The position numbers were made by a program, and so were the translations under genes. Below are positions 7,785 to 53,540 of a stretch of 64,000 nucleotides of DNA, in pieces. The number at the start of each line of letters is the position of its first letter. Within the stretch, counting starts at the first letter, position 1. The stretch is from assembly GCA_903873475.1 (NCBI GenBank), contig CAIQON010000108.1:1064-65063 (forward strand), written 5' to 3'. The DNA is from an uncultured bacterium (GTDB lineage: Bacteria > Pseudomonadota > Gammaproteobacteria > Burkholderiales > CAIKXV01). Below the pieces are notes generated by a model, which made no database searches, had not been told where the DNA came from, and worked only from the letters and a program-made list of their open reading frames with translations.

Positions 7785-7793
7785 GCTCCGCGC

Positions 7794-8591
7794 TCAGTCG
7801 CCGCTCAGGAACCCCAGCACCGCCTCCGCACACGCCTGCGCATCGCTCGCCGCCACGTGGTACGACTTCCCCGGCAACACCAGCAACCGTGAGTTGGATA
7901 TCTGCGCCTGCCACGCCCGCGTCCGCTCCACCGTCCCCAGCCCGCTCTCCTCGGTGGTGATCACCAGCGTCGGGCACTGGATCTTGGGCAGGTCCGCGCG
8001 GATGTCGGCGTAGTTGATCCCCCGGTTGAACCCGACCAGCGACGACACCGGCGCACGTCCCATGAACTGCGTCCACCACTCGACGCCCTCGGGCGGGAAG
8101 TGTTCACCGAGCCGACCGTCCATCGTCCGCCGTGCCCAGTGCTCGGCGCCCTTCGTCTCGAACTCCTCGATCAGCGCAGGCACCTTCTCGACGCCGGGCC
8201 GCAGCGCCTGCGGCGTGCCCACCACCACCATCGACTTCACTCGATCCGGCCGGCGTGCGGCGAACGCGCGTGCGATCGTGCCGCCGATCTTGGCCGCGAC
8301 GAGGTGGAAGCGTTCGATCTGCAGATGGTCCATCAGCTGGCAGTAATCGTCGATCAGCGCGTCCAGCGTCCACTCATATTCGCGCGGCATCGGCGTCGAT
8401 CGGCCGTAGCCGCGCATGTCCGGGCGCACCACCTTCAGGTGGCGCGCCAGCACCGGCACCCAGGCATACCAGGCGAGCGAGCTCTCGGCGTTGCCGTGGA
8501 GCATCAGCACCGTCTCGGCGTCGGTCCACGGATCGGTGAAATCGTCGAGCTGGTAGAACAGGTCGCAGTCGGGCAGCTTCAGCGTCGGCAT
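7794..8591 (-). CDS. Alpha/beta-hydrolase-fold protein with atypical nucleophile elbow (AAKIGG)
   Basis: N-terminus LFYQLDDFTDPW...VLMLHG...RPDMRGYGRS aligns with four paralogs in the window. The GxSxG position reads A-A-K-I-G, with the Lys codon at 8289-8291. Confidence 0.8.
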   Translation of the reverse strand: MPTLKLPDCDLFYQLDDFTDPWTDAETVLMLHGNAESSLAWYAWVPVLARHLKVVRPDMRGYGRSTPMPREYEWTLDALIDDYCQLMDHLQIERFHLVAAKIGGTIARAFAARRPDRVKSMVVVGTPQALRPGVEKVPALIEEFETKGAEHWARRTMDGRLGEHFPPEGVEWWTQFMGRAPVSSLVGFNRGINYADIRADLPKIQCPTLVITTEESGLGTVERTRAWQAQISNSRLLVLPGKSYHVAASDAQACAEAVLGFLSGD

Positions 8592-40943: not shown

Positions 40944-41945
40944 TCAGATGTCCTTCGCGATGCGCTTGACGAGCTTGCCGTAGGACTCGTAGTCGGCGCG
41001 TAGCAGCGCGCCGAACTGCTCGGGCGTGAGCACCGTCGGCTCCATGCCCTGCCGCGTCCACGCATCACGCCCGTCGGTCGAGGCCAGCACCTTGCCGATA
41101 GACCCGTTGAGCCGCGCCACCACCTCGCGCGGGGTGGACACCGGCGCGACGATGCCCTGCCAGCCAGTCATCGAGTAGCCGGGCAAGCCGGACTCGGCGA
41201 TCGTCGGTGTGTCGGGCAGCGCCGGGATGCGCTTCGGGCCGGTGACCGCGATCGGGCGCAGGCGCCCCGACTTCACATGCGGCAGCAGGAACACCGGGCT
41301 GTTCCACATCAGGTGGATGCTGCCACCGGTGAGGTCGACCAGCGCCGAGTTGCCGCCACCACGGTAGGGCACATGCAGGATCTCTACATTGCCCATCGCA
41401 CCGAACAGCACGCCGGCCAGGTGGAACGCACTGCCGACACCGTTCGAGCCATAGGCCATCTCGCCCGGACGCTTGCGCGCCAGCGCCAGCACTTCACGCA
41501 CGTTCTTCGCCGGCAGCGACGGATGCGCCACCATCAGGAACGAGAACTCGCCGATCAGCGCCACCGGAGCGAAGTCGCGCAGCGGATCGAACTGCACCTT
41601 CTGCAGCCATGGCGTGGCGACCATGCCCGACCCCGGACCGGCGAGCAGCGTGTAGCCGTCGGGTGCTGCCTTCGCCACCGCCTCGGCGGCGATCGCGCCG
41701 GTGGCGCCCGGGCGATTCTCGACCACCACCGGCTGCCCGTACTCCTCCGACAGGCGCTGCGCGAGGAAGCGGCCGTTGATGTCGATCGACGTGCCAGGCG
41801 CGTAGCCGATCAGGATGCGGATCGACTTGACCGGCCACTTGTCGGAGGACTGCGCCGCCACGGGCTGGCTGGCGCAGAGCGCGCCCAGTGCGCCAGCGCC
41901 CAGCATCGCGGCGGCAATCGGAAATGTTCGGTACATGCGGATCAT
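40944..41945 (-). CDS. Bug/TctC-family substrate-binding protein
   Basis: KWPVKSIRILIGYAPGTSID after a signal peptide. Start ATG at 41945 or 41936. Confidence 0.9.
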   Translation of the reverse strand: MIRMYRTFPIAAAMLGAGALGALCASQPVAAQSSDKWPVKSIRILIGYAPGTSIDINGRFLAQRLSEEYGQPVVVENRPGATGAIAAEAVAKAAPDGYTLLAGPGSGMVATPWLQKVQFDPLRDFAPVALIGEFSFLMVAHPSLPAKNVREVLALARKRPGEMAYGSNGVGSAFHLAGVLFGAMGNVEILHVPYRGGGNSALVDLTGGSIHLMWNSPVFLLPHVKSGRLRPIAVTGPKRIPALPDTPTIAESGLPGYSMTGWQGIVAPVSTPREVVARLNGSIGKVLASTDGRDAWTRQGMEPTVLTPEQFGALLRADYESYGKLVKRIAKDI

Positions 41946-42039: not shown

Positions 42040-43053
42040 TTACTCCTGCTCCACCCCTGCCCGCTTGATCACTTTCGCCCACTTCACGATCTCGGCGTTC
42101 ACGAACGCCTGGAACTGCTCGGGCGAGCCGCCCCCGGCATCCCCGCCCTGGCTGCGCACCATCTCGCGCACCTTTGCATCGCCCAGCGCACGCACCATCT
42201 CGGCGTTGACCTGGCGTACCAGGTCCGCCGGCATCGCGGCCGGTCCGAACAGGCCGAACCAGGCCAGTGCTTCATAGCCGGACAGCGTCTCCGAGATGGC
42301 GGGAACCTCGGGCAGCACGTCCGAGCGTTTCGACGAGGTCACCCCGAGCGCGCGCAGGCGGCCGGTCTTCAGGTGCGGCATCGCGGTGGTGATGTTGGGG
42401 AACATGCTCATCACGTTGCCGCCGATGACATCGGTCATGCCGGGCGTGCTGCCCTTGTACGGGACGTGCAGCATGTCGACACCGCCGAGGTCGGCGAACA
42501 GCACGCCCGCCAGGTGCTGCGAGAAGCCAGTGCCGGCCGATGCATAGGTGACCTGCCCTGGCTTCGCCCGCGCCAGCGCGACCATGTCCTTCACCGACCG
42601 TGCCGGGAACGACGGGTGCACCACGAGCGCGTTGGGCACGCTCGCCACCAGCATCAGCGCCGTGAAGTCGCGCACCGGATGGTAGGACAGCGTCTTGCGC
42701 AGGCTCAGGTTGATCGCATGCGTGCCGCTGTGGCCCATCAGCACCGTGTAGCCGTCGGGCGGTGCGCGCATCGCCAGTTCGACGCCGATGATGCCGCTGC
42801 CACCGGCACGGTTCTCGACGATGAACGGCTGGCCGAGGTTCTCGGCCATCTTCTGCACCACCGCGCGCGTGAGGATGTCGGTGCCGCCGCCCGGCGGACC
42901 GGGCACGATCGCACGCACCGGGCGGTTCGGCCAGGCTTGCGCGGAGGCCGTACTGCAGGTCAAAGGCAGCAAGAGCACAGTCCCGAGGACAGCCAGCACG
43001 GGGACCGTGCGCGACCGTCGAGCACCAGCCGCCAGAACGTCGAATACCTTCAT
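42040..43053 (-). CDS. Bug/TctC-family substrate-binding protein
   Basis: AWPNRPVRAIVPGPPGGGTD. ATG at 43053 preceded by GGAGGAG. Confidence 0.9.
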   Translation of the reverse strand: MKVFDVLAAGARRSRTVPVLAVLGTVLLLPLTCSTASAQAWPNRPVRAIVPGPPGGGTDILTRAVVQKMAENLGQPFIVENRAGGSGIIGVELAMRAPPDGYTVLMGHSGTHAINLSLRKTLSYHPVRDFTALMLVASVPNALVVHPSFPARSVKDMVALARAKPGQVTYASAGTGFSQHLAGVLFADLGGVDMLHVPYKGSTPGMTDVIGGNVMSMFPNITTAMPHLKTGRLRALGVTSSKRSDVLPEVPAISETLSGYEALAWFGLFGPAAMPADLVRQVNAEMVRALGDAKVREMVRSQGGDAGGGSPEQFQAFVNAEIVKWAKVIKRAGVEQE

Positions 43054-43133
43054 GTGACTCCTCCAGGGCCGGTCGTCCCAGACCATGCAGACGTTCCGTG
43101 CTGCCCGCTGCGGTTGCCGAAATCACGCCACGG

Positions 43134-44606
43134 TCAGATCACCTTTCCGGGATTCATGATGCCCTGCGGATCGAGGACACGCTTGAGCCGGTGCATCACC
43201 TCGAGTTCCACCGCACTCTTGTAGTGCGGCAGCTCGGCCACCTTGGCCTGACCGATGCCGTGTTCGGCACTGATCGAGCCGGAACGTTCGTGTACCAGGC
43301 GGAACACCACCTCGTTGACGTCGGTGGCTGCGATGGCGACAGGATCGTCGCGCATCCGTCCGGGCACATAGCAGTTGTAGTGCAGGTTGCCGTCGCCGAT
43401 GTGTCCGAAGCAGACGATACGTACGCCGGGAAACGCAGCTTCCAGCCGTGCACCAGCCTCTTCGATGAACGACGGAATGTCGCTGGTCGGCACGGATATG
43501 TCGTGCCGATAGAGCAACCCCTCGCTCTTCGATGCATCCGGGATGGATTCGCGGATCCGCCACAGGGCCTGTGCCTGGGCATCGCTCTCCGCCAGCGCCG
43601 CATCGGTGACGAGCGCTTCCTCGACCGCATCTCCCAGCGCCTGTTCGAGCGCCGACCTGAGATCCGATTCAGTGCGAGGATCATCGACATTGGTGAGCAC
43701 ATACCAGGGCGATGGAGCAGCGAGCGGATCGCGCGTCCCCGGTATGTGCGCCAGGACCAGTTCGATGCTGCGTCTGGAGATCAGTTCGAATGCACTGACG
43801 CGGTTGCCCACCTGCTCGCGCAGGCGGCCGAGGAGCGCAATCGCAGCGGAAGGGTCGGGCACGGCAGCGAACGCAGTCACCGAAGTACGCGGCATCGGAA
43901 ACACCTTCAGAACCGCGCCGGTGATCACGCCCAGCGTACCCTCGGAACCGATGAACAGTTGCTTGAGGTCGTAGCCGGTATTGTCCTTACGCAGCCCGCG
44001 CAATCCACCGAGCACGCTGCCATCGGCCAGCACCACCTCGAGCCCGAGCGTGAGGTCGCGCGTGTTGCCATAACGCAGGACGTTCACGCCGCCTGCATTG
44101 GTCGCGAGGTTGCCGCCGATCTGACAACTGCCTTCAGCACCGAGGGACAGCGGGAACAGGCGGCCGGCCGCCGATGCCGCCTGCTGAACGGTCGCCAGTA
44201 CGCAACCGGCCTCGACCGTGATCGTATCGTTGAGCGGGTCGAGTGCGAGCACCCGGTTCATGCGCGCAAGGGACAACACGATCGTGCGTCCATCCATGGT
44301 CGGGGTAGCGCCACCGCACATCCCCGTGTTGCCGCCCTGGGCAACGACCGCGACTCCGGCATCGGAACACAGACGCACGACTGCCGAAACCTCCGACGTG
44401 CTGGCGGGGCGGACCACCGCCATCGCGCGCCCCTTGTAGAAGCCACGCCAATCGCTCAGTGCCGGCGCGACGTCTGCCGTATCGGTCAGTACGTTCGCGT
44501 CGCCGACCGCCTGCGCCAGCCGCTCGACGAATGCCGCCGCCGCGGCCGACGGATATTCCATGTCTGGTTTCATGACTGCCTGCATGACTGGTTCAACATC
44601 ACTCAT
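43134..44606 (-). CDS. FAD-linked oxidase (GlcD/D-2-hydroxyacid dehydrogenase-like)
   Basis: ...AMAVVRPASTSEVSAVVRLCSDAGVAVVAQGGNTGMCGG... FAD-binding PCMH domain and ...ISAEHGIGQAK... near the C-terminus. Start uncertain (in-frame ATGs at 44606, 44585, 44573, 44561). Confidence 0.85.
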   Translation of the reverse strand: MSDVEPVMQAVMKPDMEYPSAAAAAFVERLAQAVGDANVLTDTADVAPALSDWRGFYKGRAMAVVRPASTSEVSAVVRLCSDAGVAVVAQGGNTGMCGGATPTMDGRTIVLSLARMNRVLALDPLNDTITVEAGCVLATVQQAASAAGRLFPLSLGAEGSCQIGGNLATNAGGVNVLRYGNTRDLTLGLEVVLADGSVLGGLRGLRKDNTGYDLKQLFIGSEGTLGVITGAVLKVFPMPRTSVTAFAAVPDPSAAIALLGRLREQVGNRVSAFELISRRSIELVLAHIPGTRDPLAAPSPWYVLTNVDDPRTESDLRSALEQALGDAVEEALVTDAALAESDAQAQALWRIRESIPDASKSEGLLYRHDISVPTSDIPSFIEEAGARLEAAFPGVRIVCFGHIGDGNLHYNCYVPGRMRDDPVAIAATDVNEVVFRLVHERSGSISAEHGIGQAKVAELPHYKSAVELEVMHRLKRVLDPQGIMNPGKVI

Positions 44607-44817
44607 TACCGAGGGCAATGATAGTACCGGGACGAGAAAGCGTCCGGGCGATCGACCGCAGTATGCTGCTTCGGGTCGATCTACCCTGCGCTGCGTGCAG
44701 TCGTACTTGACGCCGCCCGAACGTCTGTCCCACCATCGCCCACAGGATCCAGACACACACCGGAGCTTCAGCCTGATGCGCCATGTCACTTTGCATCCAG
44801 AGGGCATCCTCAGCCGG

Positions 44818-45774
44818 ATGTCCGCGCGCATTGCTGCAGCCGCCGCGATCGCTTTCCTGGCCACCCCCGCACACGCCGGCTGGCCCGACAAGCCGATCCG
44901 CATCGTCGTGCCCTTCCCCGCCGGCGGCAGCACCGACAGCGTCGCACGCCTCAGCGCCGAGTGGCTGGCTCGCGTGCTCGCGCAGCCGGTCACGGTCGAG
45001 AACCGCACTGGCGCAAGCGGCACCATCGCCGCCGAGTTCGTCGCGCAGTCGCCGCCCGATGGACACACGCTGTTCATGGCCTCGCTCGCGCAGATGTCCA
45101 TCGTGCCGCAGATGGGCAAGGTGCGTTACGACCCGTTCAAGAGCTTCGCGCCGATCTCGGTGATCTCAACCAGCTTCTTCGCGCTGGGCGTGCATCCGAG
45201 CCTGCCGGCGAAGAACATCCCGCAGCTGGTCGCGCTGGCGAAGGCCAATCCGGACAAACTGTCCTACGGCTCGTCGGGCACCGGCTCGGCGGCACACCTG
45301 ACCATGGCCCTGTTCCTGTCGCGCGCCGGGGTGAAGATGACGCACGTGCCGTACAAGGGCGTCGCGCCGGCGATCGCCGACCTGGTCGGCGGCCATGTAC
45401 CGATGGTGTTCGGCAGCGTGTCGGAGGTGCTGCGCTACTACAAGGGCGGCAAGCTGCGCGTGCTGGGCGTGTCGAGCGACAGGCGGCTGGCGCAGATGCC
45501 GGAGGTACCGACCGTGGCCGAACAGGGATTCCCCGGCTACCGCGTGATCACCTGGAACGGACTGGTCGCACCAGCAGCCGTGCCGCGCGACGTGCTGTCG
45601 GTACTGGTCAACGCGATCCGCCCGGCGTGCAAGGATGCCGGGTTCAACGCGAAGTTCGACGCGATGGACGCCGACGCCTGGTGCAGCACGCCTGCGGAGT
45701 TCTCGGACATGCTGCGCGCCGACTGGACGAAATGGGGCGAGGCGGTGAAGTTCTCGGGCGCGACAACGGAGTAG
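44818..45774 (+). CDS. Bug/TctC-family substrate-binding protein
   Basis: GWPDKPIRIVVPFPAGGSTD after the signal peptide MSARIAAAAAIAFLATPAHA. Alternative ATG at 44776. Confidence 0.9.
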   Translation: MSARIAAAAAIAFLATPAHAGWPDKPIRIVVPFPAGGSTDSVARLSAEWLARVLAQPVTVENRTGASGTIAAEFVAQSPPDGHTLFMASLAQMSIVPQMGKVRYDPFKSFAPISVISTSFFALGVHPSLPAKNIPQLVALAKANPDKLSYGSSGTGSAAHLTMALFLSRAGVKMTHVPYKGVAPAIADLVGGHVPMVFGSVSEVLRYYKGGKLRVLGVSSDRRLAQMPEVPTVAEQGFPGYRVITWNGLVAPAAVPRDVLSVLVNAIRPACKDAGFNAKFDAMDADAWCSTPAEFSDMLRADWTKWGEAVKFSGATTE

Positions 45775-45801: not shown

Positions 45802-46269
45802 TCAGGCAGGCTCGAACTTGACCACGCCGACACCCTCGGCAACGGTTTCGAACAAGGCCTTCACCGGCATCCCCACCCGGACGGCGTCCGGCGCGCAGTT
45901 GATGAGGTTGCTCATCAGCCGCCCGCCTTCGTCGAACTCGACGATCGCGATCACGTAGGGCAGGTCGGCGCGAAACGCCGGGTCGGGCGCACGGTGCACG
46001 ACGGTGTGCGAGAACACCGTCCCGCGTCCGGCCACCTGCACCCACTCGAAGGTGACGCTGCCGCAGTCGCAAGCGGCGCGCGTGGGCGCATGGTGTCGGC
46101 TGCACTTGAGGCATCGGCGCAGGCGCAGCACGCCTTCGGCGCAGCCAGCAAAGAACGGACGGTTGGCGTCGGTGGGCGTAGGTATCGGCTTCGACGGTGG
46201 CGGGCCGGCGGGACGCGCGGGCTTCGCAGCGTCCGCGGAGGGCTTCGTGCCAGGGACAGGATCGGTCAT
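45802..46269 (-). CDS. DUF35-type Zn-ribbon/OB-fold protein (thiolase partner)
   Basis: ...LRLRRCLKCSRHH.PTRAACDCGS...EWVQVAGRGTVFSHTVVH...VIAIVEFDEG.... The rubredoxin-like Cys4 plus OB fold is typical of DUF35. RBS GAGGAG. Confidence 0.75.
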   Translation of the reverse strand: MTDPVPGTKPSADAAKPARPAGPPPSKPIPTPTDANRPFFAGCAEGVLRLRRCLKCSRHHAPTRAACDCGSVTFEWVQVAGRGTVFSHTVVHRAPDPAFRADLPYVIAIVEFDEGGRLMSNLINCAPDAVRVGMPVKALFETVAEGVGVVKFEPA

Positions 46270-46279
46270 CGGAATCTCC

Positions 46280-47422
46280 TCATTTACCCAGGATCAGCGT
46301 GCAGGACAGCGACATCGGTCCACCGATGCCGTGTGCGAGTGCGAGCTTCGCGCCCTGTACCTGATTGATGCCCGCGTCTCCGCGCACCTGCCGCACCGCC
46401 TCCGGCAGGACGATGATGTGCGCGTTGCCCCAGGTCATCATGCCGCCAGTGGTGTTGGTCGGGATCGAGCCGCCGAGCGCAGTGTGGCCGTCGGCGAACA
46501 GACGTCCGGACTGGCCGCGTTCGCAGAACCCGAGTTCCTCCATCGCGATCAGTGCGGCGATGCTGAAGGCGTCGAACACCTGTGCGGTGTCGATGTCGGA
46601 CGGCTTCACCCCGGCGATGCCGAACGCGGCTTCCGCCGACTGCCGCGCAGCACCTGGCGGCAGGTCGTCGTTCTCGTTCAGGTGGTAGGGGCCATGGCCT
46701 TCGCCACCGCCGATCAGGCGCACCGCCGGCTGGCGCATGTCGCGCGCGCGCTCGAGCGTGGTCACGATCACCGCACCGCCCCAGTCGGCCACCGGGCAGC
46801 AGTCGAGCGCCCGCAATGGCGAGGCGATCGGCTGCGAGGCGAGAATCGCCTCGACGGTCAGCGGGTCGCGCTTCGGGGCATGCGGCTGGCGCCGGGCATG
46901 CTCGCGCGCCGCCACGCCCACCGCAGCGAGGTCTTCCGGACGTCCGCCATGGCGGTGCATCCAGCGCTGCGCGATCAGTGCGTACTTGCCGGGCACGGTC
47001 AGGCCGAACGGGTCTTCATAGTCGTCGGTCCAGGGACGGGCGGCGCGCATGGCCTGGATCTTGTCGCCCTTGAACCGCGCACCCCGGCTGTCGCTCTCGC
47101 AGACCAGCACCGTGTGCGCCTCGCCGGCGGCGATCGCGCGCGCGGCATAGAGCACGCCCATGCAGGGTGATGCGCCGGCGTCCTGGATCGCGGTGTTGAT
47201 GCGCGCCGGGATGTTCAGCGCCTCGGTCACCAGAGAGCTGAACATGAAGTGGGGATCCCCCGCCGGGCTGGCGGTGATCACGCCGTCGATGTCGCGCGGG
47301 CCGATGCCGGCATCGGCCATCGCAGCCAATGCAGCCTCGACCGCGAGGTCCTGTGCCGTGCGCACCCGGTCGGGCCCCACGGCGGCCTCGCCGACCCCGG
47401 CAAATGCAATCGAACCGTACAT
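46280..47422 (-). CDS. Thiolase-like (SCP-x/nonspecific lipid-transfer type) protein
   Basis: ...IAFAGVGEA..., ...AGASPCMGV..., ...NTTGGMMTWGNA..., ...LAHGIGGPMS.... ATG at 47422 after GAGGAA (alternative ATG 47434 overlaps the upstream stop). Confidence 0.8.
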   Translation of the reverse strand: MYGSIAFAGVGEAAVGPDRVRTAQDLAVEAALAAMADAGIGPRDIDGVITASPAGDPHFMFSSLVTEALNIPARINTAIQDAGASPCMGVLYAARAIAAGEAHTVLVCESDSRGARFKGDKIQAMRAARPWTDDYEDPFGLTVPGKYALIAQRWMHRHGGRPEDLAAVGVAAREHARRQPHAPKRDPLTVEAILASQPIASPLRALDCCPVADWGGAVIVTTLERARDMRQPAVRLIGGGEGHGPYHLNENDDLPPGAARQSAEAAFGIAGVKPSDIDTAQVFDAFSIAALIAMEELGFCERGQSGRLFADGHTALGGSIPTNTTGGMMTWGNAHIIVLPEAVRQVRGDAGINQVQGAKLALAHGIGGPMSLSCTLILGK

Positions 47423-47430
47423 GTCGTTCC

Positions 47431-48897
47431 TCATCGCGTGTTGCGTCCCAGGGTCAGGTTGAAGCCGGGGCGGCTGATGTGCACGGTCGTGTTGCCGGCG
47501 ATGCGCGACAGCTCGCCCACCAGGTGCACCAGCGAATCGCCGCGCGTCTCGTATTCTCGCACCGGGCCGGCAGCGGCACGCATGCGGTCGATGTCATCCT
47601 TGCGCAGCAGGTAGCGCAGCAGCAGGTCTTCCTCGGACAGGTCTTCCGCGCCCAGCTCGCGGCGGATCTGCGCCTCGCTCATGGGGTCGTGGTCGATCGC
47701 CGCCAGTTCGCGCGCGCGTGGCCGGTCGAGGATCTTCGCGCGCACTGCCGGATCCATCAGCGCCTCGACGTCGCCGCCGAAATGGCCGAGCGCATAACGG
47801 ATCGACTGGTCGGTTACCTGCGCATAGCGCTGCCCGGTCATCACGTTGAGCGCCGCCTGGCTGCCGACGAACTGCGACAGTGGCGTCACCATGATCGGAT
47901 AGCCGTACTCGGCGCGCACCTGCACCGTCTCCTCCAGCGCGGCAGGCAGCTTGTCCTCGGCCCCGACCTCGCGCAGCTGGTTGCGCAGGTTCGAGATCAT
48001 CCCGCCGGGCACCTGGTGCACGTACTGCGCATGGTCGTACTCGACCGGGCGCCCGATGGCGAAGCCCTCGCGGCGGGCCACCACCGAGAAATGGTCGACC
48101 ACCGGCCGCAGCAGCTCTTCGTCCAGCCCCGAGGTGTCGTAGCCGAGCGCGCGCAGGTTCGCCGCCACGTTGAACACGGACGGCAGCGAGGCATCTTCCG
48201 CGAGCGGCGGAATCGCGGTGTTCACGATGCGCAGGCCCTGCTGCACCGCCTCGAGCACGCACAGCGGGCCGAGGCCGGTCAGGCAGTGCGTGTGCATCTC
48301 GATCGGGATGCCACCGGCGGCCTCGATCATCAGCGGCACCAGCGCCCGCGTGCGCTCGGGGGTCAGCAACCCGCCCGGATCCTTCAGGCACAGCCGCCAG
48401 GGCTTGAGCTTCGCCGCGGCGCGCGTGCGCTCGACGAAGTAGCGGTCGGTATGCCGGGGCGAGATCGAATAGGTGACGTTGATGATCGGCCGCACGCCCG
48501 CGGCGGCGGCGGCACCGGCCCGGCGCTTCCAGACCTTTTCGTCGTTCCAGGCATCGGAGACGCGCACCTCCGCGATGCCCGCCGCCTTCATCACCCGCCA
48601 GAACAGCTCCACCATGCACTGCTGGTCTGATCCGAACAGGTTCAGGCCACCGCCATTCATGCGCAGCGGCGTGCGTCCGCCGCGCGCGGCGAGCAGCCGC
48701 ACGCGCTCGATCGGGTCTTCGCGCAGGTCGCGCACGCACTTGCCGATGAAGGACGGTGCCAGCACTTCGAGCGCGCCGAACCCGGCACGGTCGAGCCGGT
48801 CGACCACCGGCAGCATCATGCCGGTCGTCATCCACTCGGCCCACAGGCTCTGCTGGCCGTCGCGCAGCGTGACGTCGACGAATTCGATCTTTTCCAT
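47431..48897 (-). CDS. Carboxyltransferase of the pyruvate carboxylase B / oxaloacetate decarboxylase alpha type, without biotinyl domain
   Basis: MEKIEFVDVTLRDGQQSLWA... (HMGL-like TIM barrel), IEMHTHCLTGLG metal site, and a PYC_OADA-like region. It ends without an AMKM motif. Confidence 0.8.
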   Translation of the reverse strand: MEKIEFVDVTLRDGQQSLWAEWMTTGMMLPVVDRLDRAGFGALEVLAPSFIGKCVRDLREDPIERVRLLAARGGRTPLRMNGGGLNLFGSDQQCMVELFWRVMKAAGIAEVRVSDAWNDEKVWKRRAGAAAAAGVRPIINVTYSISPRHTDRYFVERTRAAAKLKPWRLCLKDPGGLLTPERTRALVPLMIEAAGGIPIEMHTHCLTGLGPLCVLEAVQQGLRIVNTAIPPLAEDASLPSVFNVAANLRALGYDTSGLDEELLRPVVDHFSVVARREGFAIGRPVEYDHAQYVHQVPGGMISNLRNQLREVGAEDKLPAALEETVQVRAEYGYPIMVTPLSQFVGSQAALNVMTGQRYAQVTDQSIRYALGHFGGDVEALMDPAVRAKILDRPRARELAAIDHDPMSEAQIRRELGAEDLSEEDLLLRYLLRKDDIDRMRAAAGPVREYETRGDSLVHLVGELSRIAGNTTVHISRPGFNLTLGRNTR

Positions 48898-48911
48898 CGG
48901 GGGCTCCAGCC

Positions 48912-50294
<1,383 letters not shown>

Positions 50295-50316
50295 GGTCAG
50301 GGCTTCGGCCTGATCA

Positions 50317-50853
50317 TCAGGATGCCCTCACCCGGAACAGCACCTGTCCATACTCGACCAGGGCGGCATCCTGCACGCAGATCTCGGTGATCACGCCGGC
50401 AAGACCCGCATGCACGGCGTTGAACATCTTCATCGCCTCGACCAGCCCGACCGTGCTCTCCGGGCCGACCGTCGAACCGATCGACACATACGGGGCAGCG
50501 CCCGGCTCCGACTGCGAGTAGAAGCGGCCGATCATCGGCGACACGATGGCGACCGTGCCGTCGTCGGGCCGTGCGGCAGCGGCAGCAGCCGGGGTGGCCG
50601 TCGCGGGCGCCGGGGAGGACCCGGCAGCCGCTGCAGGCGGTGCTGCAGCAACGCTCGACACGATGGCCGGCGGCGGCGCGCTGGCCACGGCCGCTGCAGC
50701 CGGCGCAAGGCCTTGTCCACCCTTTGCCAGCGTGAGCTTCAGGTCCCCGAACTCGAGTTGCAGGTAATCGAACGTCGAGGCGTTCAGGGTTTCGATGAGG
50801 CGGCTGATCTGCCGGACTTCGTCTTCGCTCAGCGGTACGTCTTGTTCGGCCAC
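50317..50853 (-). CDS. Biotin carboxyl carrier protein
   Basis: Ala/Pro-rich linker and the biotinylation motif VEAMKMFN (Lys codon 50428-50430). GTG start after AGGAG. Confidence 0.85.
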   Translation of the reverse strand: MAEQDVPLSEDEVRQISRLIETLNASTFDYLQLEFGDLKLTLAKGGQGLAPAAAAVASAPPPAIVSSVAAAPPAAAAGSSPAPATATPAAAAAARPDDGTVAIVSPMIGRFYSQSEPGAAPYVSIGSTVGPESTVGLVEAMKMFNAVHAGLAGVITEICVQDAALVEYGQVLFRVRAS

Positions 50854-50880
50854 GCGATTGCTCCTGGAGTTCGGTTCATG

Positions 50881-51573
50881 TCACTGCTGCAGCTTCGCGC
50901 CGTTGGCGGCCGTCTCCGGCACTTCCATCTCGCGGAAGTCCGGCGCCACGATCAGCACCGCTTCCGTCTTCGCCTGCACCGCCGCAGGATCGAATCCGGG
51001 CATCGCCTCGCGCAGCACCAGTCCGTCAGCGGTGACGTCGACGATCGCGATATCGGTGTAGATGCGCTTCACGCAGCGACGGGCGGTCAGCGGCGCGGTG
51101 CACGTCTTCACGATCTTCGGCTTGCCCTTGTTCGTGACATGGGACATCGCGATCAGGATGTTGGGGGCGCCGACCGCGAGATCCATTGCGCCGCCCACGC
51201 CGGGCACGGCTTCGCCCGGCACCTTCCAGTTGGCGAAGTCGCCGTTCTGCGCCACCTCGATCGCACCCAGCACCGCGTGGGTCAGGTGGCCACCGCGCAT
51301 CATCGCGAACGAGATCTGCTGGTCGAAGATCGCGGCGCCGAGCGCCAGGGTGCAGAAGCCCTTGCCTGCGCTGATCAGGTCGAGGTCGATGTCGTCGCCC
51401 TTCGGCACGGGGCCGACGCCCAGGATGCCGTTCTCGCTGTGGAGAAAGATCTCCTGGGTGCGGTCGAGGTAGTTCGAGACCAGCACCGGGATGCCGACGC
51501 CGAGGTTCACGTAGGCGCCTTCGTGCAGGTCGCGCGCGATGCGCCAGGCGATGCCGTCACGGGTGAGGATCAT
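50881..51573 (-). CDS. 3-oxoacid CoA-transferase subunit B
   Basis: ...GAYVNLGVGIP...LHSENGILG...GGAMDL.... ATGA overlap with subunit A. Confidence 0.9.
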   Translation of the reverse strand: MILTRDGIAWRIARDLHEGAYVNLGVGIPVLVSNYLDRTQEIFLHSENGILGVGPVPKGDDIDLDLISAGKGFCTLALGAAIFDQQISFAMMRGGHLTHAVLGAIEVAQNGDFANWKVPGEAVPGVGGAMDLAVGAPNILIAMSHVTNKGKPKIVKTCTAPLTARRCVKRIYTDIAIVDVTADGLVLREAMPGFDPAAVQAKTEAVLIVAPDFREMEVPETAANGAKLQQ

Positions 51574-52274
51574 GAATGGCCTCCCGGTTTTGGCAGCTTG
51601 ATCAGTTCGGGGTGGCGTTCGACCTGTACGACATGGTCGACGAAGATGCCGGGGGTGTGCACGTGTTCGGGATGGATCTCGCCTGCCGGCACGATGCGAT
51701 CGACTTCCGCGATCACCGTATCGCAGGCCGTGGCCATCACCATGTTGAAGTTGCGCATCGTGCCGCGATACATCAGGTTGCCGAAGCGGTCGCCGAGGTG
51801 GCCCTTGAGCAGCGCGAAGTCCGCGCGCAGCGCCTTCGCGAACAGATACTCGCGCCCGTCGATCTCGCGCACTTCGCCGCCCTCCGCGAGTTCGGTGCCC
51901 ACGCCGGTCGGGGTGTAGAAGCCGCCCAGGCCGCAGCCGCCGCAACGGATGCGCTCCACCAGCGTCCCCTGCGGCACGAGTTCGAGTGCGACCTCGCCCT
52001 TGAGGTAGCGCTCACGGAACTGCGCAGCCGACGGCGCGGGAAAAGAGGCGATCAGCTTGCGCGCGAGCCCGTCGCCAAACAGCGATCCGAGCGCGAACGG
52101 GCCGGTACCGGCGCCATTGCTCACGATGGTGAGATCGCGCGCACCGTGTTCGCGCAGGGCCTCGATCAGTTGCCCGGGCATGCCGGCATTGCCGAAGCCG
52201 CCGAACATGATCGTCGCGCCGTCGAACACCTTCTCTACGGCCTCCCTGCACGTGGAGAGCGTCTTGTCGATCAA
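51570..52274 (-). CDS. 3-oxoacid CoA-transferase subunit A
   Basis: ...DGATIMFGGFGNAGMPGQLIEAL...LTIVSNGAG...ELVPQGTLVERIR.... TTG start at 52274 preceded by GGAGGA (no in-frame ATG near the conserved N-terminus). Confidence 0.85.
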   Translation of the reverse strand: MIDKTLSTCREAVEKVFDGATIMFGGFGNAGMPGQLIEALREHGARDLTIVSNGAGTGPFALGSLFGDGLARKLIASFPAPSAAQFRERYLKGEVALELVPQGTLVERIRCGGCGLGGFYTPTGVGTELAEGGEVREIDGREYLFAKALRADFALLKGHLGDRFGNLMYRGTMRNFNMVMATACDTVIAEVDRIVPAGEIHPEHVHTPGIFVDHVVQVERHPELIKLPKPGGHS

Positions 52275-52495: not shown

Positions 52496-53540
52496 ATGAA
52501 CATCGATCGCACCGGTTCAATCGTTCCCAGCCATCCAGGCCGGGCCCGGGACGGGTTCCCGCAGCGCACGCTCGCCCTGGCAGCCAGCCTCGCGACCGGC
52601 CTGGCGCTGACCATGGCTGCACCGGACGGCATCGCCCAGGGCGCAGCCGCATACCCGGTGAAGCCAGTCACGCTGATCCTCCCCTACGCACCGGGCGGCA
52701 CCATCGACATCCAGGGACGCCTGCTCGCATCCGGCCTCAGCGCCCGCCTCGGCCAATCCTTCATCGCCCGCAACATGCCGGGTGCCACCGGCGCGATCGC
52801 GACCGAGTACGTGGCGCGATCGGCACCGGACGGCTATACGCTGCTGTTCGGCTCGTCCGCACAGACCACCAGCGTGCCGATGACCGACAAGGTCAACTAC
52901 CGACTGGAGGATCTGGTGCCGGTCAGCGCGTCTGGCCGGGGCGCGATGGTACTCGCCATCAGCTCGCAACTGCCGTCGAAGACGCTCAAGGAGTTCATCG
53001 AACACGCGCGCGCGGTGCCGGGCAAGCTCAACTACGGCTCCCCGGGCGAAGGCTCCGTCGGCCACCTGGTTGCTGCGCTGTTCGTCGCGCGCGCAGGACT
53101 CAGCGTCGTGCACGTGCCGTACAAGGGCGGTGGTCCGGCGATGGCCGACCTGCTGGGCGGCCAGATTCCCATGCTCTTCGGAAACTCCGGCGAAGTCATG
53201 GCGAACGCCAAGAGCGACCGTATCCGCATCATCGCGGTGTCGACCGCTCAGCGCATGCGGCAACTGCCCAACATCCCGACCGTCGCCGAGTTCCTGCCGG
53301 GTTTCGAGATGACCGCATGGCAGGGGTACGCTCGCACCGGCGCGCACGCCGCGCGCGATCGTGGAAACGCTGTCGAACGCCATCCAGGCGCTGTCGAAGG
53401 AACCGGCCGTGATCGAACGCCTGGAACAGTTCGGAGTCGAATCGACCACGACCACGCCCGAACAGATGGCGGCGATCATCCGCGCCGAGCAACCGGTGTA
53501 CGCGGAAGCCGTGAAAGCGGCCGGCCTGGGCGGCCGCTGA
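52496..53540 (+). pseudogene. Bug/TctC-family gene with a +1 frame change at 53324-53330 (G4 run)
   Basis: The frame gives ...AYPVKPVTLILPYAPGGTID...FEMTAWQG, then junk. The +1 frame continues with TLAPARTPRAIVETLSNAIQALSKEPAVIERLEQFGVESTTTTPEQMAAIIRAEQPVYAEAVKAAGLGGR and stops at 53538-53540. Confidence 0.7.

Follow-up and report, generated by a model that had tools for sequence, protein, structure and literature searches.

The question raised by this locus is what a bacterium does with an operon in which a 3-oxoacid coenzyme A (CoA)-transferase, a split biotin-dependent carboxylase and a thiolase-like protein with a DUF35 partner are encoded in one row. The window, a stretch of 64,000 nt of contig CAIQON010000108.1 (assembly GCA_903873475.1), comes from an uncultured freshwater/soil betaproteobacterium (Burkholderiales, CAIKXV01), and all coordinates are window positions unless a related locus is named. 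Seven co-directional open reading frames (ORFs) were found on the minus strand at 45802-52274, and neighbouring frames either overlap or are separated by no more than 27 nt. A preliminary sequence-only reading had described seven co-directional genes with gaps below 30 nt, and this was confirmed by the gene model and by Pfam and NCBIfam searches, in which every domain named in that reading was recovered. The genes encode CoA-transferase subunits A and B (ctfA and ctfB), BCCP (the biotin carboxyl carrier protein), BC (the biotin carboxylase), a carboxyltransferase (CT), a thiolase-fold protein and a DUF35 protein (Table 1). There is about an even chance that the operon is a module for breaking down an organic acid taken up by the cell, in the form of a kinase-independent, CoA-transferase-linked variant of ketone carboxylation.

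The CoA-transferase, BCCP and BC were evaluated by profile searches. CtfA matched PF01144 (E=4.9e-62) and TIGR02429 (297.6 bits, cut-off 128.5), and its best PDB match was 3cdk, subunit A of a succinyl-CoA:3-ketoacid CoA-transferase (E=5.6e-63). CtfB matched PF01144 (E=3.5e-38) and TIGR02428 (281.2 bits, cut-off 243.55), and the catalytic Glu of its SENG motif was located within FLHSENGILG. With both subunits above curated cut-offs, the pair is classified as a family-I 3-oxoacid CoA-transferase. The BCCP scored 123.8 bits against TIGR00531 (cut-off 115.2), contained PF00364 (Biotin_lipoyl) and had the biotinylation motif AMKM at 50436..50425. The BC consisted of the Biotin_carb_N, CPSase_L_D2 and Biotin_carb_C domains, had a full ATP-grasp fold with the GGGGRG loop and reached 631.5 bits against NF006367 (cut-off 597). 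The predicted catalytic motifs of BC, BCCP and CtfB are all intact. Moreover, the BC of the operon is a dedicated extra copy, because three further BC homologues were found elsewhere in the source genome.

The CT matched PF02436 (PYC_OADA, E=8e-28) and PF00682 (HMGL-like, E=1e-12). Its PDB matches were the beta chain of the two-subunit pyruvate carboxylase (PC) of Methylobacillus flagellatus (5ks8, E=1.1e-70), OadA (2nx9) and transcarboxylase 5S (1rqb). No Biotin_lipoyl match was obtained for the CT, and the alignments ended at about model position 430 of 591. The sequence-only reading had assigned the CT to the HMGL/PYC_OADA type, with its own biotinyl domain absent and a separate BCCP carrying AMKM at 50425-50436, all of which was borne out. 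The same reading had regarded the CT as the type that acts on free 2-oxo acids, and this part did not hold. The CT fell below all NCBIfam cut-offs for PycB and OadA (NF006761, 320 vs 402; TIGR01108, 288 vs 756; NF010644, 278 vs 734). The metal ligands, namely, the Asp of RDG, the Lys of KD and the His-x-His pair, were kept (RDGQQS, LKDPGG and MHTHC), and the catalytic Thr-Pro-x-Ser segment was retained (VTPLSQ); the equivalents in Lactococcus PC (LlPC) are Asp534, carboxylysine 703, His732/His734 and Thr867/Ser870 (PMC9581989). The fold, the metal ligands and Thr-Pro-x-Ser were shared with 5ks8, 2nx9 and 1rqb, whereas the window CT had no C-terminal biotinyl domain, lay outside their clade and had lost the Arg of the LLRGQN loop. 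This loop was NGGGLN in the window CT, with Gly at the Arg position. The pattern N[GSA]GGLN was found throughout the ctfAB-linked subclade of CTs with at least 65% identity, and Arg was present in all canonical rows of the alignment. In LlPC, the corresponding Arg606 contacts pyruvate and oxaloacetate, and PC activity is lost when it is mutated (PMC9581989). Other changes in the window CT were FDAMND to SD(A/S)WND and KDMAG to KDPGG. The His-to-Gln change in RDGHQS was considered as a marker of specificity and rejected, since the position varies inside the subclade. The alignments of the active-site loops, in the CT as in the thiolase-fold protein, rest on sequence without a structure of either window protein.

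The position of the CT among its relatives was examined with a quick tree and a careful mixture-model tree. Related loci compared with the window are designated by L-numbers, together with one context named P0032, and the identities given for them refer to the CT. In both trees, the window clade joined the CTs of two clusters, L049 on plasmid pRB98 of Rhodococcus oxybenzonivorans S2-17 and L050 on plasmid pBAR1 of Sphingomonas bisphenolicum, through a branch of 100/100 with a length of 1.37. It was sister to the CTs of the L049/L050 type rather than nested within them, and PycB, OadA, 5S and single-chain PC fell outside this group. Tight clustering with bona fide PycB subunits, an outcome that the sequence-only reading had named as counting against its view, was not found. 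An approximately unbiased (AU) test rejected the grouping of the window clade with PycB/OadA/5S (p=2.6e-8), for a group that was defined only after the first tree was seen. In the trees, L049 and L050 were layout-matched proxies for the Hpe and Acv systems described below. Tblastn searches of plasmids found the CTs on catabolic plasmids at 34-40% identity. Because the window CT lies below the family cut-offs, lacks the pyruvate-binding Arg and is placed with the L049/L050 CTs, it is predicted not to be a PC B subunit. Through the gene-layout proxies, its nearest functionally understood relatives appear to be the biotin-dependent ketone carboxylases.

The biotin-dependent aryl methyl-ketone carboxylases comprise HpeCBA of Rhodococcus rhodochrous GD02 (PMC9618137), HacABC/XccABC of Aromatoleum aromaticum EbN1 (PMC10715001) and AcvCDE of Sphingobium SYK-6 and Novosphingobium, which is found with MarK (PMC12624787). 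The window shares with them the separation into three subunits, with an Escherichia coli-type BCCP, a BC and a PYC_OADA/HMGL CT of about 490 aa that has no biotinyl domain. The expected product is likewise a beta-keto acid, which is converted into its CoA ester and cleaved (PMC9618137, PMC10715001, PMC12624787). The window differs from these systems in having neither a kinase (HpeHI/AcvAB, MarK) nor a phosphatase (HpeD/AcvF), and no aryl kinase or phosphatase was found in the window or in about 12 related contexts. A family-I CoA-transferase takes the place of the AMP-forming ligase, and a TctC carboxylate-binding protein belongs to the window module. Furthermore, the window CT is only 34-40% identical to the layout-matched ketone-carboxylase CTs and forms part of a separate, very large environmental clade. 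At the cleavage position, the window has neither a thiolase such as TioL1 nor a beta-keto hydrolase of the HpeF/VceB kind.

The two plasmid clusters were compared with the window gene by gene. The pBAR1 cluster has the order UPF0261 (Tm-1-like)-BCCP-BC-CT-HAD, and it matches the marK-acvCDEF layout for the catabolism of acetovanillone and 4-hydroxyacetophenone (PMC12624787). The pRB98 cluster (554465-564501 of L049) has the order ligase-pyruvate phosphate dikinase (PPDK)-like kinase-BCCP-BC-CT-DUF35-thiolase-Tyr-phosphatase, which shares with the Hpe pathway its scheme of kinase, carboxylase and phosphatase (PMC9618137). As in the window, BCCP-BC-CT is followed by a DUF35/thiolase-fold pair. 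Unlike in the window, a kinase, a phosphatase and a ligase are present, and the DUF35 gene precedes the thiolase gene. The thiolase of pRB98 is a true one that keeps the Cys (ENACASG), HDAF and GHP, whereas the window protein keeps none of the three motifs. The sequence-only reading had not been aware of a description of a thiolase/DUF35 pair in one operon with a biotin carboxylase; the HacABC-AcsA1-TioL1 system had in fact been published (PMC10715001), and pRB98, from the annotated genome of a cultured bacterium, holds such genes in a single row. The pRB98 cluster appears to be an undescribed variant of the Hpe type, in which DUF35 and a thiolase take the place of the HpeF hydrolase and a Tyr-phosphatase-family protein that of the HAD phosphatase.

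The thiolase-fold protein matched Thiolase_C_1 (E=9.6e-45), and its PDB matches were, in order, 4u4e (an uncharacterised structural-genomics entry named 'thiolase'), Ltp2 (6ok1), an archaeal-type thiolase (7yvy), Sal (9myr) and BbsB. The DUF35 protein matched PF01796 (E=1.1e-26) and PF12172, contained OB_ChsH2_C and a CxxC...CxC zinc ribbon, and its best PDB matches were the DUF35 partners in the Ltp2 (6ok1_B) and Sal (9myr_B) entries. The position of the nucleophilic Cys was occupied by Gly in the thiolase-fold protein (DAGASP vs AACASG), FDAF was present where thiolases carry HD[CA]F, and TW----GNAH replaced GHP with a deletion of four residues at the GHP loop. With Gly in place of the nucleophile, thiolysis is precluded (PMC12329534). 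The aldolases use other residues, which are the base Tyr294 of YDHF and the acid Tyr344 in Ltp2 and Tyr302 and Cys304 of YDCY in Sal (PMC12329534). The window protein resembles Ltp2-ChsH2 and Sal-Shy in the Gly at the nucleophile position and in its zinc-ribbon/OB DUF35 partner. It differs from them in the GHP-loop deletion and in the replacement of the base Tyr (YDHF/YDCY) by Phe and of the acid (Tyr344 or Cys304) by Asn/Ala; throughout the clade, Phe occupies the aldolase base position and Ala/Asn the two aldolase acid positions. The MaoC hydratase and the steroid genes of the Ltp2/Sal steroid systems are likewise absent from the window. The protein is predicted to be incapable of thiolysis and, because all three thiolase motifs and the Tyr/Cys sets of the aldolases are replaced, to be neither a thiolase nor a recognisable Ltp2/Sal aldolase. 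A Cys four residues past the nucleophile position (SPC) was rejected as a displaced nucleophile, since the orthologues have Gly or Met there with no gap in the alignment.

The altered residues were conserved with precision. The orthologous group of the thiolase-fold protein comprised about 55 clusters at 65-100% identity, followed by nothing above 45%. The combination of Gly, FDAF (FDGF in one case) and GNAH was found in every member (55/55 clusters at 65% identity or more), and the next relatives, at 45% or less, mostly had YDCF, which is the Sal/SLP-type motif. All seven genes of the operon were under purifying selection, with ratios of nonsynonymous to synonymous substitution (dN/dS) of 0.03-0.12 against L001. 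The thiolase-fold gene had the lowest value of the operon against L001 (0.027, compared with 0.05 for the CT), and values of 0.10 and 0.16, respectively, were obtained against L003. Moreover, two dozen polar residues of the thiolase-fold protein were invariant and specific to the clade, including E109, K146, Y246 and H335, and many of them were located in loops that build the active sites of thiolase-fold proteins. This leaves two readings of the protein, as an enzyme whose active site has been remodelled or as a scaffold that is conserved with precision.

The recurrence of the module was explored with a pattern scan of species-representative genomes, which gave 11 loci with CTs of 51-98% identity and a few paralogous copies of 48-54%; below these loci, identity fell to 38% or less, the level of ordinary OadA/PycB genes. 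The protein collection contained thousands of CT homologues of about 488 aa, nearly all metagenomic and none informatively named; CT homologues number about 5,800 overall. Members of the CT clade occur in soil and freshwater metagenomes, among Betaproteobacteria, Binatia and Rhizobiales, and on a marine Sulfitobacter plasmid, and several of the loci come from lake water. Gene neighbourhoods were read in about a dozen contexts out of the thousands, among them ten lineages from the subclade whose CTs share at least 65% identity with that of the window. The full seven-gene order was found in L001, L002 and L039 (97-98%) and in L035-L037 (66%), and this recurrence is far above chance. The neighbourhood comparison suggested by the sequence-only reading thus came out in its favour, as the same seven genes are present in L001/L002 and L035-L037.

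Other loci retained parts of the arrangement. BCCP-BC-CT-thiolase-fold-DUF35 was present at L003 (79-80%) and BC-CT-thiolase-fold at the short loci L040 and L041, where the available sequence ends before ctfAB. The order ctfAB-CT-thiolase-fold-DUF35 was found without nearby BC or BCCP in L038 and the P0032 context (65% and 68%), and ctfAB-BCCP-BC-CT stood alone in L055 (69%). According to Pfam, L004 and L056 (75%) had ctfAB-BC-CT-[Citrate_synt-family gene]-BCCP. L034 (78%) had ctfAB, an N-terminal BCCP remnant of 73 aa (7792-8013) and the CT, and L054 (67%) had a lone CT with TctC genes. In L034, an apparent deletion has removed the BC and the biotinyl domain, while the rest of the ctfAB-CT locus is intact. 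In the subclade, ctfAB adjoined the CT in seven of the eight lineages whose upstream side was visible; the thiolase-fold/DUF35 pair was present in six of ten lineages, and BC with BCCP in five of ten. Orthologues of the upstream TctC-family protein (60-71% identity) adjoined the module in L001, L004, L035, L038, L055 and L056, whatever else was present, and thus travelled with it in at least six contexts, whereas TctC paralogues were 33-44% identical to the upstream TctC protein of the window. The arrangement, which is conserved down to a CT identity of about 65%, is modular, with the CoA-transferase, the CT and one cognate TctC protein as its stable core.

Genes of the Citrate_synt family that resemble citryl-CoA lyase lay beside CTs of the clade at L004 (9634-10446), L056 (8610-9422) and L046 (1-688), and were accompanied by family-I or family-III CoA-transferases. 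In L004 and L056, the encoded protein has a GFGHP motif, and its gene stands in the place of the thiolase-fold/DUF35 pair. Enzymes of the citryl-CoA-lyase type release acetyl-CoA and a keto compound from a beta-hydroxyacyl-CoA. On the Sulfitobacter plasmid (L046), one of the loci in the range of 51-59% CT identity, genes for a TRAP transporter, the citryl-CoA lyase and a family-III CoA-transferase lay close to BCCP-BC-CT. Among the species representatives, six of the 11 genomes of the window's genus carried the module. It was present in two of the 167 genera of the order, in the second only at 42-43% identity, and 400 other genomes of the class contained neither the CT nor the thiolase-fold protein. 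Its distribution among species-representative genomes is that of a rare, accessory module.

These results can be joined into a putative pathway. The dedicated TctC-family protein would deliver a carboxylate. BC, BCCP and CT would act together as a ketone-carboxylase-type enzyme of three components that depends on ATP and biotin, adds CO2 to the carbon beside a keto group and yields a beta-keto acid; the class of this carboxylase is indicated by homology and active-site residues, and its substrate is putative. CtfAB would turn an acid of the pathway into a CoA thioester without ATP, most likely the labile beta-keto acid, and perhaps the incoming acid as well. In this role, CtfAB would stand in for the ligases that serve the published routes, AcsA1, HpeE and Bal (PMC10715001, PMC9618137, PMC4729919), a substitution that we infer from the gene linkage, which is tightest between ctfAB and the CT. 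The thiolase-fold/DUF35 heteromer may then catalyze a C-C step on the CoA ester that is not classical thiolysis, perhaps a lyase-type cleavage in the remodelled site. The sequence-only reading had combined a carboxylation or decarboxylation of a keto compound, CoA activation and a thiolase-type reaction. Carboxylation next to a keto group, CoA activation and a C-C step agree with the present results, and the thiolase-type reaction does not, as the catalytic residues are missing.

The steps could follow one another in two orders. In order A, an imported beta-hydroxy acid would be activated by CtfAB and cleaved by the thiolase-fold/DUF35 pair into acetyl-CoA and a ketone, which would then be salvaged by the carboxylase. 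This order fits the Ltp2/Sal ancestry of the pair and the fact that L004 and L056 carry a citryl-CoA-lyase-like gene in its place. In order B, carboxylation and CoA transfer would precede the cleavage of a beta-ketoacyl-CoA, in parallel with the succession of genes and the logic seen in the Rhodococcus and Aromatoleum systems. Precedents for this logic are HacABC/AcsA1/TioL1 (PMC10715001), HpeCBA/HpeE/HpeF (PMC9618137) and acetophenone carboxylase (PMC4729919). Acetone and acetophenone carboxylases (Acx; Apc with benzoylacetate-CoA ligase) share the sequence of ATP-dependent carboxylation of an inert ketone to a beta-keto acid, CoA activation and cleavage (PMC4729919, PMC5214803), but they are biotin-independent enzymes of the hydantoinase family and are unrelated in sequence to the window carboxylase. 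Order B requires a cleavage chemistry that is not known for thiolase-fold proteins lacking the Cys, and order A is slightly ahead. Aliphatic methyl-ketone acids, for example levulinate, 5-oxohexanoate or acetoacetate, and tertiary beta-hydroxy acids that give such ketones are speculative candidate substrates suggested by chemical reasoning only.

A more specific version of the pathway can be formulated, in which carboxylates with blocked beta-oxidation are degraded by an undescribed route. CtfAB would activate the imported acid, the thiolase-fold/DUF35 pair would cleave a beta-hydroxyacyl-CoA to give acetyl-CoA and an aliphatic keto compound, a biotin-dependent carboxylase with specificity for ketones or keto acids that are neither aromatic nor phosphorylated would turn this compound into a beta-keto acid, and CtfAB would recapture the latter. 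The pair would then represent a third catalytic solution that uses neither the Cys nor the Tyr sets, with a citryl-CoA-lyase-like enzyme in its place in some lineages. Taken together, this version is tentative and rather doubtful. If it were true, the carboxylase would be the first biotin-dependent aliphatic ketone or keto-acid carboxylase of its clade, and the pair would carry out a new chemistry of the thiolase superfamily.

Several observations weigh against the general proposal of an acid-degrading ketone-carboxylation module. Catalysis by the thiolase-fold protein is an assumption, for which the strong constraint and the invariant polar residues would be the support. The tie of L049 and L050 to the characterised Hpe and Acv systems consists of gene layout and annotation and not of direct sequence comparison. 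The kinase and phosphatase are absent, so the aryl-phosphate handle of the characterised relatives is absent as well. In addition, intact loci without local BC and BCCP (L038, P0032 and L034) imply either that BC and BCCP act in trans or that the CT works alone.

Different explanations of the operon were weighed against this proposal. The pair could be a non-catalytic scaffold that joins the CoA-transferase to the carboxylase and channels the labile beta-keto acid, while a housekeeping thiolase elsewhere performs the cleavage. Consistent with this, the thiolase Cys/His/His and the aldolase Tyr/Tyr and Tyr/Cys sets are missing in 55 clusters (PMC12329534), four other thiolase-fold paralogues are present in the source genome, and the module occurs without the pair in L055, L034 and L054. 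DUF35 proteins are also described as scaffolds in thiolase/3-hydroxy-3-methylglutaryl-CoA synthase (HMGCS) and Shy-Sal complexes (PMC12329534, PMC11321319). However, the thiolase-fold gene is the most constrained one of the operon (dN/dS of 0.027 and 0.10), the clade-invariant polar residues are situated in loops that line thiolase active sites, and a probable enzyme of the citryl-CoA-lyase type in the same place in L004/L056 suggests an enzymatic step there. A scaffold role for the pair is considered unlikely. A different direction of the carboxylase reaction was also conceivable, in which the CT would decarboxylate or transcarboxylate, like OadA or 5S, a beta-keto diacid derived from a citrate-like tricarboxylate, and the BC would be auxiliary or needed only sometimes. 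BC and BCCP are missing from the otherwise intact L038, from the P0032 context and, apart from the remnant, from L034; citryl-CoA-lyase-like genes (L004, L056 and L046) and a tricarboxylate-type TctC protein would recall citrate lyase with oxaloacetate decarboxylase. This explanation is nevertheless improbable, given the intact and constrained ATP-grasp BC in the window operon and in five of ten lineages, the absence of membrane OadB/OadG-type subunits and of a 12S-type partner CT from every context, and the loss from the CT of the Arg that contacts oxaloacetate in PC.

Two further explanations would place the operon among described enzymes. It is very improbable that the operon is a plain member of the Hac/Hpe/Acv group that degrades aryl ketones of the 4-hydroxyacetophenone or acetovanillone type. 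The sister position of its CT clade to CTs of Hpe/Acv layout, the shared three-subunit architecture and the DUF35 and thiolase pair after the CT in R. oxybenzonivorans would suit such a role, whereas a kinase (PPDK-like or UPF0261/MarK) and a phosphatase are missing in and near the operon and in about 12 contexts. Furthermore, the CT identity is only 34-40%, the cognate TctC protein points to an anionic carboxylate rather than a neutral phenol, and a CoA-transferase is found where a ligase would be expected. An ordinary split anaplerotic PC (PycA/PycB with a free BCCP) beside genes for acetoacetate utilisation would agree with 5ks8 as the best PDB match of the CT (E=1.1e-70), with the CT being the sole PYC_OADA-type gene of the source genome and with the similarity of ctfAB to succinyl-CoA:3-ketoacid transferases. 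The CT, however, scores 320 against a PycB domain cut-off of 402 and is far under all equivalog cut-offs, the pyruvate-binding Arg is absent, and by both tree and AU test it falls outside PycB/OadA/5S. The distribution of the module, in six of 11 genomes of the genus and almost no other genus, is unlike that of a core anaplerotic enzyme, the 'thiolase' would be incapable of thiolysis, and all seven genes co-vary as a unit. An anaplerotic role is regarded as highly improbable.

The CT architecture of the HpeCBA/AcvCDE/HacABC type and the logic of a carboxylase with a thiolase are already published. In a full-text literature search, no paper was found that joins DUF35, biotin carboxylase, CoA transferase and thiolase. 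The kinase- and phosphatase-free branch with a fixed family-I CoA-transferase and a cognate TctC protein appears to be undescribed in the literature surveyed, as do the thiolase-fold partner without Cys and Tyr and the abundance of the branch in uncultured soil and freshwater bacteria. To our knowledge, the biochemical demonstration of biotin-dependent ketone carboxylases dates back no further than 2022 and is limited to lignin-derived aromatic ketones in phosphorylated form. The operon represents a much larger sister clade of the aryl-ketone carboxylases, and identification of its substrate would widen the known range of biological ketone and keto-acid carboxylation, that is, of ATP-driven CO2 fixation onto small molecules. 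Its thiolase-fold partner would either add a new catalytic solution to a superfamily that has been studied well or clearly exemplify the conversion of an enzyme into a scaffold. The substrate could be approached cheaply through ligand screening of the cognate TctC protein.

The gene model and the surroundings of the operon are summarized in Table 1. The G+C content of the window is 68%, and long spurious ORFs are frequent. The seven frames had G+C contents at third codon positions (GC3) of 0.74-0.86, which is of the coding type, and all seven starts were plausible, each with a Shine-Dalgarno-like purine run on its 5' side. In gene order from ctfA, the junctions were -4, +27, +22, +14, -4 and +10 nt. 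A sequence scan found no terminator-like or promoter-like sites inside the operon on the operon strand. A sigma-70 promoter scan of the region between ctfA and the upstream TctC gene gave 0 matches and is uninformative at 68% G+C. No regulator, kinase, phosphatase, hydratase or dehydrogenase gene was found adjacent to the operon in the window. The source genome is a metagenome-assembled genome (MAG) of 4.5 Mb in 407 contigs, and the window lies on the contig labelled C108.

Table 1. Features of the operon and its surroundings in the window.
Feature	Position	Strand	Description
ctfA, family-I 3-oxoacid CoA-transferase subunit A	51570..52274	-	234 aa; TTG start after GGAGG
ctfB, CoA-transferase subunit B	50881..51573	-	230 aa; SENG catalytic-Glu motif
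BCCP	50317..50853	-	178 aa; N-terminal segment, then an Ala/Pro linker and a biotinyl domain that carries EAMKM
Biotin carboxylase (BC)	48912..50294	-	460 aa; full ATP-grasp BC
Carboxyltransferase (CT)	47431..48897	-	488 aa; PYC_OADA/HMGL fold, without biotinyl domain
Thiolase-fold protein	46280..47434	-	384 aa; Thiolase_C_1
DUF35 protein	45802..46269	-	155 aa; zinc ribbon and OB fold
Cognate TctC-family solute-binding protein	52646..53528	+	PF03401; divergent from ctfA
Second TctC-family binding protein	44875..45774 (44560-45774 by another extent)	+	PF03401, E=2.4e-65; convergent with the DUF35 gene; start approximate, from tblastn and Pfam extents
GlcD-like FAD-linked oxidase	43134-44540		beyond the second TctC gene
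Further TctC-family gene	42040-43086		just downstream
Further TctC-family gene	40944-41945		just downstream

A high density of TctC genes, as seen around the operon, is typical of Burkholderiales. The upstream TctC gene of the window is frameshifted near 53322-53326, with its match divided between two frames, whereas the L001 copy, which is 97% identical, is read in a single frame. The break is either a real frameshift, by which the binding protein would be inactivated in this strain, or an error of the MAG assembly. The second TctC gene has a 97% identical copy at the same place in L001/L002; it is conserved beside the operon only in close relatives and is not orthologous to the TctC genes of the distant loci.

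The C-terminal tail of the CT (47431-47570, about 45 aa, ...VHISRPGFNLTLGR) loosely resembles the N-terminus of the BCCP (50720-50853, ...LQLEFGDLKLTLAKG). Exactly these two segments were paired by hhalign, but weakly (P=0.008, probability 5%), and BLASTP of the tail against the BCCP N-terminal segment gave no match; homology between them is not established. If the likeness were true, both segments could dock alike on the BC.

UbiD-family genes were observed near the module in four contexts (L034, L035, L051 and P0032) and were considered as pathway partners. The source genome has seven paralogues of this prenylated flavin mononucleotide (prFMN) decarboxylase family, on contigs C57, C88, C138, C184, C221 and C387, and none of them lies on the contig of the module. 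The proximity was treated as probable chance, given these paralogues, and UbiD was rejected as a partner.

At CT identities of 51-59%, the partner genes change completely, and BC-BCCP-CT is found beside a luciferase-like oxygenase and hydrolases. At L052 (7482-11254), the order BCCP-CT-Amdase (arylmalonate decarboxylase family)-TctC occurs with no BC nearby, which is an odd pairing of a carboxyltransferase with an enzyme of a cofactor-free decarboxylase/racemase family. At L008 (1108-7439, a Binatia MAG), three paralogous CT genes in tandem come after BCCP-BC; they are 52-54% identical to the window CT, and one BC/BCCP pair may serve several substrate-specific CTs there.

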